The notes below the pieces were generated by a model. That model made no database searches. It worked only from the letters and a program-made list of their open reading frames with translations, and was not told the DNA's origin. Positions 61,225 through 61,464 of a stretch of 64,000 nucleotides of DNA are shown here, in pieces; position 1 is the stretch's first letter; every line of letters starts with the position of its first letter. The DNA comes from Anaeromyces robustus (Eukaryota), in NCBI GenBank assembly GCA_002104895.1, contig MCFG01000067.1:62001-126000 (forward strand), written 5' to 3'. A program made the position numbers and the translations under genes.

Positions 61225-61464
61225 ATGAGACTTTTAAATATTATTTCTGCAACTCTCGCCTGTGCTTTAACTCTTGCTGAAGCTCGTGCATGTATTGGAC
61301 ACTCTTATGTCTTTTCAAGAACTTACTCTGCTACATGTGAAAATGGTTACAAGTTAGATTATGTTAAATGTTCTCCAGCTTGTAAATTAAATAAACAAGG
61401 AAGAAAATTTTCTGCTGAAGCCATAAATGGTAGAAGTACTACTGTTGGTTGGAGATGTTGTTAA
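61225..61464 (+). CDS. 79-aa secreted cationic Cys-rich peptide ending in CC (resistin-like Cys spacing)
   Basis: Signal peptide MRLLNIISATLACALTLAEA; six Cys in the mature part; intronless; CATCATG start and a TATA-like gtataaata at ~61103. Confidence 0.85.
   Translation: MRLLNIISATLACALTLAEARACIGHSYVFSRTYSATCENGYKLDYVKCSPACKLNKQGRKFSAEAINGRSTTVGWRCC

Follow-up and report, generated by a model that had tools for sequence, protein, structure and literature searches.

Introduction

To our knowledge, resistin and the RELM proteins are known from vertebrates, whereas the gene described here is fungal. Besides a signal peptide, RELM proteins have a head and a coiled-coil, alpha-helical tail, and the head is described as a six-stranded jelly-roll with ten conserved cysteines joined in five disulfides (PMC8253364, PMC13647132). 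The invariant cysteine signature given for the family is C-X11-C-X8-C-X-C-X3-C-X10-C-X-C-X-C-X9-CC-X3-6-END (PMC9869618, PMC7251035). Keyword searches of the open-access literature turned up neither resistin-like proteins from fungi nor cysteine-rich antimicrobial peptides encoded by genes of anaerobic fungi.

The locus examined here is a small ORF of the gut fungus Anaeromyces robustus, located near one end of a 64-kb stretch of DNA that was analyzed as a whole and is referred to below as the window. The first-pass annotation of this DNA had read the product as a secreted cationic peptide carrying the cysteine scaffold of the resistin/RELM head, possibly antibacterial. The main result of the present comparison is negative, in that the link to resistin is a partial match in cysteine spacing without support from any independent test.

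The Peptide Gene and Its Predicted Product

The features of the gene and of its surroundings are collected in Table 1. The ATG is preceded by an in-frame stop 18 nt upstream, since the stop-to-stop frame starts at 61207. At the N-terminus of the 79-aa protein, M-R is followed by a hydrophobic stretch, A-E-A and then R-A, and a signal peptide was predicted from this reading together with a crude hydrophobicity rule, with a presumed cleavage site. The six cysteines of the mature part are separated by gaps of 14/10/3/24/0, and ten Lys or Arg residues against three Asp or Glu and one His give it a net charge of about +7 and a pI of 9.38. The mature sequence, the cysteine pattern and the counts of charged residues quoted in the first-pass annotation are exact, and the label of secreted cationic peptide agrees with the signal-peptide-like start, the six cysteines and the pI, as far as features predicted from the sequence can indicate secretion.

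Table 1. Features of the peptide gene and of neighboring genes (numbering of the window).
Feature	Position	Strand	Basis or remark
ORF with three Chitin_bind_1 (hevein-like) repeats, long Thr/Lys-rich linkers between them	26325-27224	-	Pfam
169-aa ORF fragment, weak subtilase (Peptidase_S8) match	34034-34540	-	E 3.2e-4, 20.6 bits, cut-off 21.8
GDSL (CE3-type) esterase with two C-terminal CBM_10 domains (E 8e-27)	43731-44942	-	Pfam
Sodium:solute symporter (SSF, E 4.5e-88), intron-less, 511 aa, 31% GC	51635-53167	+	Pfam
Unrelated intron-less ORF, 116 aa, signal-peptide-like start, 8 mature cysteines, 34% GC	54729-55076	-	
Short ORF fragments flanking the peptide gene, normal amino-acid composition	59867-60499	-	
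Possible TATA element TATAAATA	61104..61111	+	114-121 nt 5' of ATG; sequence reading only
Peptide ORF, ATG to TAA, 79 aa	61225..61464	+	Sequence reading
Start codon and predicted signal peptide, residues 1-20	61225..61284	+	Presumed cleavage after AEA, before 61285
Predicted mature peptide, 59 aa, cationic, C-X14-C-X10-C-X3-C-X24-CC, ~6.6 kDa, pI 9.38	61285..61461	+	
TAA stop codon, adjoining the terminal CC	61462..61464	+	Sequence reading
Possible polyadenylation signal AATAAA	61490..61495	+	26 nt 3' of stop; sequence reading only
Short ORF fragments flanking the peptide gene, normal amino-acid composition	62698-63998	+	

Neither of the two possible signals outside the ORF carries much weight: the TATA-like string is poor evidence, such strings being frequent at about 11% GC, and the same applies to the AATAAA in AT-rich DNA. 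More telling is the base composition. The GC content of the whole window lies between 10 and 23% in 2-kb bins, and the ORF stands out from it as a sharp island: its GC fraction is 0.342, while the flanks of 500 nt have fractions of 0.118 and 0.106. By codon position its GC is 0.36/0.54/0.13, which resembles that of the neighboring symporter gene (0.41/0.37/0.15) and is coding-like.

The exact protein is present in NCBI/UniRef records. The second member of its 90% cluster, the hypothetical protein BCR32DRAFT_326263 of A. robustus (P0128), agrees with it at 78 of 79 residues, the single difference being the conservative change L3I. The contig that carries it has the same length, 210,535 bp. A tblastn search found no second copy within the window (best non-self match E 0.97); with only one copy there, the near-identical one must therefore lie elsewhere, most likely on the same scaffold. 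Most likely, then, one scaffold holds at least two near-identical copies with intact frames. The separately annotated copy also points to a very recent duplication. The peptide gene is real and intact, and has already been annotated as coding for a hypothetical protein.

Cysteine Spacing Compared with Resistin and RELM Proteins

When the residues between the relevant cysteines of the RELM signature are added up, the distances are 10 (8+1+1), 3 and 24 (10+1+1+1+1+1+9), the same as in the peptide, and the earlier statement that these three spacings are identical to those of resistin agrees with the published signature (PMC9869618, PMC7251035). Peptide cysteines 2-6 coincide without gaps with RELM positions 2, 4, 5, 9 and 10, so that five of the six cysteines of the peptide fall on five of the ten invariant positions and half of the ten-cysteine signature is present. 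Signature cysteines 3, 6, 7 and 8 are missing, and the chain ends directly at the CC, where RELM proteins continue for three to six residues. The claim that six of the ten head cysteines were kept can be upheld for the five that coincide ungapped, but not for the first, which is displaced by three residues (X14 instead of X11).

How often such a coincidence arises was estimated from 100,000 random placements, which gave P = 0.0045 for at least five of six cysteines coinciding at the best offset and P = 0.0079 when the terminal CC was kept, both values referring to a uniform null and a single target family, with resistin picked post hoc among many cysteine-rich scaffolds. The null is uniform, yet CxxxC and CC occur frequently in natural peptides, and cysteines are densely packed in the RELM signature, where they take up 10 of 54 positions. 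For one pre-specified target the match would be suggestive.

The crystal structure of resistin described by Patel et al. in 2004 reportedly shows the two retained central cysteines paired with two of those that are missing here. With these partners missing, on that account of the structure, the central cysteines would have to bond with each other across C-S-P-A-C, an arrangement at odds with a straight strand. An ATCxxG[FY]-type motif had also been offered as a pointer to resistin; the search for relatives showed that TCxxG[YF] retrieves Sushi repeats as well, and it is therefore generic rather than resistin-specific. The mature part, as delimited by the presumed cleavage site, begins two residues ahead of its first cysteine, and the alpha-helical tail of RELM proteins is absent.

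Profile and sequence searches gave no sign of the family. The suggested comparison with the Pfam Resistin profile, made here as a single-sequence hmmscan of the 79-aa protein, returned no match to it, nor to any other family, at E<=10, and phmmer at the same threshold found no resistin or RELM chain among 177,635 distinct PDB sequences, its three matches being an adhesin, a telomere bouquet protein and complement factor H. With no Pfam match, no resistin chain among the PDB matches, half of the signature and no helical tail, membership in the resistin/RELM family could not be sustained. Judged by sequence comparison, the peptide is not a demonstrable member, and its likeness appears as a partial coincidence of cysteine spacing.

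Search for Relatives

Across all of Pfam-A, hmmscan found no family in the 79-aa protein at E<=10, although the HMMER filters discard most matches above about E 0.1, so that very weak likeness could escape. A word-indexed protein search of 5.8 billion clusters gave no non-self match. Exhaustive phmmer against 1.84 billion representatives returned the query itself and five other proteins, with E-values of 8e-7 to 1.4e-4. All five consist of near-identical repeats with two to six matched stretches each, and their E-values are inflated because they are summed over these repeats. Three of them, P0002, P0003 and P0004, are built of Sushi repeats according to Pfam (E 9e-18 to 8e-24) and match the peptide over 15-27 residues only, around Y-x-x-T-C-E-N-G-Y-K-L-D. 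The remaining two (P0005 and P0006), with Pfam matches to DUF5374 or TPR-like and to zinc-ribbon or C2H2-like families, were rejected as relatives, being unrelated repeat proteins without a Sushi match and artefacts of repeat summation. No true homologue of the peptide was found among the 1.84 billion representatives.

Other collections were no more productive. A metagenome scan reduced 450 pattern matches to a single tblastn candidate (L001), which lies on the antisense strand of a bacterial ORF of 463 aa, in a contig whose GC content is about 53%, and was discarded as a false positive. Feature searches of the Protein Atlas gave a best score of 0.81 for the whole protein, to virus clusters and at noise level, and no usable match of the mature part to named clusters; the score of 0.78 to the Antifungal_prot cluster is also at noise level, within the range of shuffled proteins.

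The GDSL esterase of the window (Table 1), used as a control, retrieved from the protein collection a 100%-identical A. robustus record and homologues that are 67-80% identical from Piromyces sp. E2 and an Orpinomyces proteome. The collection thus covers other Neocallimastigomycota, and the absence of homologues of the peptide therefore carries some weight. Apart from its near-identical copy, the peptide is an orphan, specific to Anaeromyces as far as the searched collections show. The remark that no described fungal family resembles it is in keeping with both the Pfam-A scan (none at E<=10) and the phmmer search, in which no true homologue appeared.

The operational class of fungal small secreted cysteine-rich proteins comprises small proteins that start with a signal peptide and whose mature part contains four or more cysteines, features that are all found, or predicted, here. 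On these predicted features, the peptide belongs to that broad known class, and to no described family.

Predicted Structure

Models were computed with AlphaFold2 without an alignment, and reached a mean pLDDT of 56.4 for the full-length protein and 41.4 for the mature peptide. The full-length model (pLDDT 56.4) places one helix at residues 7-25 and another, short one at 64-67, with strands at 28-37, 43-55 and 61-63. Outside the signal peptide both models appear mainly beta, with low confidence. Comparison of the pLDDT-56 model with the PDB by Foldseek gave no match at E<=0.001 (best E 0.79, to kinase domains), and the best VIA-align score against 48,161 chains was Z 2.6. No resistin, Sushi or defensin was among the results of these fold searches, and so poor a model decides nothing either way. 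Small beta-barrels of the IF-1/OB kind, proposed by the Atlas with TM values of 0.42-0.53, were disregarded; the Atlas model has a pLDDT of 0.42.

Transcription

Among the 24 listed sequencing runs, 20 contain between 0.52 and 0.72 of the sampled words of positions 61100-61600. Six of the runs are recorded as RNA (metatranscriptomic, 'fungus metagenome') and hold 0.52-0.60 of these words; most other presumed RNA runs are guesses, and the share of 0.72 belongs to a run that is likely DNA. Such word shares indicate that some part of this 501-nt stretch is present in RNA assemblies and do not say which part. An assembled transcript of about 300 nt, or roughly the ORF with short UTRs, would account for a share of 0.60.

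Quantitative values come from TPM tables in the supplement to PMC10512310, for A. robustus, by itself or together with Methanobacterium bryantii, grown on cellulose. They are those of the near-identical copy, protein 326263, and not of the copy in the window, and since only primary alignments were counted, reads are divided arbitrarily between the two copies. In monoculture on days 2-5 (n=13), 326263 ranged from 0 to 0.82 TPM, and in co-culture over the same days (n=15) from 0 to 2.7 TPM, with values of 8.91, 18.96 and 17.98 TPM in the three co-culture samples of day 6. The day-6 samples are from co-culture only and have no day-6 monoculture control, and according to the abstract good RNA was obtained from day 2 to day 5, so that day 6 falls outside that period. 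A growth-stage or stress programme would explain the rise no less well than a response to the methanogen.

Protein ID 326263 is absent from the supplements of PMC8406330 (fungus with Fibrobacter in co-culture) and PMC10734481. A scan with a sigma-70 promoter and terminator model found fewer sites than in shuffled sequences; the model does not apply to a eukaryote.

Taken together, the data support transcription of the peptide gene at a low level, with a late rise in batch co-culture. Absence of transcription had been named as grounds against the first reading of this locus, and transcription is indicated by six RNA runs with 0.52-0.60 of the words and by up to 19 TPM for the copy 326263 in the published tables. 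As to the proposed look at RNA in co-culture, the tables give 8.91-18.96 TPM for this copy on day 6 with the methanogen and 0-2.7 on days 2-5.

Gene Neighborhood

The recognizable genes of the window are listed in Table 1. The GDSL esterase has a glycine-rich N-terminal region behind its signal peptide, and its CBM_10 domains we take to be of the fungal dockerin type of anaerobic-fungal cellulosomes. These domains and the low GC content of the window agree with the first-pass reading of the source as a gut fungus. Besides its fungal homologues, the esterase resembles proteins named for Ruminococcus flavefaciens, which share 76% identity with its catalytic part over 59% of the length, and by this likeness the gene looks like a bacterium-to-fungus transfer. 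The public gene model for it (P0011, 300 aa) covers only 72% of the ORF. The subtilase-like fragment is probably one exon of a larger gene. The symporter gene is isolated in AT-rich DNA.

A crude scan for secreted cysteine-rich ORFs in the window found two within 6 kb of each other, namely the peptide ORF and the unrelated 116-aa ORF, for which there was no Pfam family and, in the word-indexed search, no match but itself. The several short ORF fragments on either side of the peptide gene may derive from genes that have decayed or from mobile elements; a label as retroelement remnants was dropped, Pfam having found no match.

Discussion

The account we find slightly more likely than not is that of a genuine, intron-less, transcribed gene of A. 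robustus whose product is a lineage-restricted secreted cysteine-rich peptide that binds anionic microbial surfaces. A signal peptide of 20 residues would be cut off on entry into the ER, leaving a mature peptide of 59 residues that, as far as the models indicate, is mainly beta-structured and in which up to three disulfides probably hold the fold together. It would be released from the cell in a stable form, with a mass of about 6.6 kDa and a net charge of about +7, and its likeliest action would be extracellular binding to negatively charged microbial envelopes, in the manner of host-defence-like peptides. There it would serve competition with rumen bacteria or archaea. Rumen bacteria far outnumber anaerobic fungi. 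That the peptide is antimicrobial as such, to judge from its charge, size and habitat, is a tentative suggestion to which we give distinctly less than even weight. Among the small secreted cysteine-rich proteins of fungi, many lack antimicrobial activity. At present, it is one more uncharacterised species-restricted small secreted protein; if it were antimicrobial, it would represent a gene-encoded, disulfide-stabilised weapon of anaerobic gut fungi and bear on their competition with rumen bacteria.

The same gene-level evidence would serve a secreted cysteine-rich protein with no antimicrobial role, which might belong to the cell wall or surface, act in development or late growth, or carry a signal between cells. 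This is a serious possibility, to which we give about the same weight as to antimicrobial activity: the copy 326263 rises only on day 6 in the published tables, which a growth-stage or stress programme would explain no less well than a response to the methanogen, and at a distance of 6 kb there is a second, unrelated orphan ORF for a secreted cysteine-rich protein. Against it, a net charge as high as +7 in a peptide of 59 residues is seen more often in host-defence-like peptides than in surface-active or wall proteins, which is a general tendency and not a test. Nothing in the present evidence separates such a role from the binding of microbial surfaces. That the ORF has no function, having arisen by chance or being in decay and transcribed at noise level, is very improbable. 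The copy stays below 1 TPM in most of the published samples (PMC10512310), homologues outside the species are absent from the searched collections, and chance ORFs of this length do occur in the window, e.g., the low-complexity ORFs at 50369-50593. Against this stand the sharp GC island with its coding-like codon positions, a non-repetitive sequence in which a signal peptide is predicted and the mature cysteines are even in number, two copies with intact frames that differ by one conservative change, L3I, and assembled contigs in six RNA-recorded runs, with up to 19 TPM for the copy.

Very unlikely, in our judgment, is a minimal beta-sandwich like the resistin/RELM head, acquired by descent, transfer or convergence and permeabilising bacterial membranes as the C-terminal domain of RELM-beta does. 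Five of six cysteines fall on RELM positions without gaps (P of about 0.005-0.008 under the uniform null), the low-confidence models are beta-rich, and the peptide is cationic, as the surface of the resistin head is also said to be (PMC8253364); the isolated C-terminal region of RELM-beta reportedly retains lipid binding and membrane permeabilisation (PMC13647132). Against these points, neither a Pfam family nor a resistin or RELM chain of the PDB was found at E<=10, four cysteines of the invariant ten have no counterpart, the first of the peptide lies three residues off, and neither the X3-6 extension nor an alpha-helical tail is there. The spacing P takes no account of the choice of family, TCxxG[YF] is generic, and the central cysteines lack what are said to be their usual partners in the crystal structure. 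The fuller version, in which a minimal three-disulfide or convergent resistin-head fold acts as a late-induced, membrane-permeabilising weapon against rumen prokaryotes, is even harder to credit. Hardly more credible is a degenerate single Sushi/CCP-like module. It draws on three of the five non-self phmmer proteins (P0002, P0003 and P0004), whose matches span residues 26-59 around the motif given above, on the factor H chain among the three weak PDB matches, and on the Sushi-like order Cys ... Y-x-C-x-x-G-Y ... Cys ... W ... Cys. The Pfam Sushi model (PF00084) gave no match even at E<=10, however, the E-values of 8e-7 to 2e-5 are sums over four to six near-identical repeats of 15-27 residues each, and the peptide has six cysteines, not four. 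The usual Sushi spacings differ from those of the peptide (14 and 28).

Comparison with Known Systems

Sushi/CCP repeats, which have four cysteines and a conserved Trp at canonical spacing, share with the peptide a local hairpin of the form Y-x-x-x-C-x-x-G-[YF]-x-L-D with a cysteine after it. They differ in the number and spacings of their cysteines, PF00084 does not match the peptide, and the likeness extends over 15-27 residues per repeat. With fungal small secreted cysteine-rich proteins and cationic antifungal or antimicrobial proteins, for example the PAF/AFP family (Pfam Antifungal_prot), the peptide shares a signal peptide, here predicted, a mature part of about 50-60 residues, about six cysteines, a basic charge and, in its low-confidence models, a beta-rich structure. 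The cysteine pattern of PAF/AFP differs from that of the peptide, and the family profile (PF11402) gave no Pfam match in it. The PAF/AFP family is ascomycete, whereas the peptide gene is neocallimastigomycete.

Set beside the heads of RELM-alpha, -beta and -gamma, the predicted peptide is similarly secreted, cysteine-rich, cationic and beta-rich, its fold being that of a low-confidence model. RELM proteins, as described, have ten invariant cysteines in five disulfides, a first spacing of 11, a coiled-coil tail and residues past the CC, whereas the peptide has six cysteines and at most three disulfides, a first spacing of 14, no tail and no residues after the CC. What they have in common are five coinciding cysteines (10/3/24 and the CC pair), and a membrane-active antibacterial role would be conceivable for both, by analogy with what is reported for RELMs (PMC9869618, PMC13647132). 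A resistin-head-like fold in a gut fungus, if there were one, would put the RELM scaffold outside animals.
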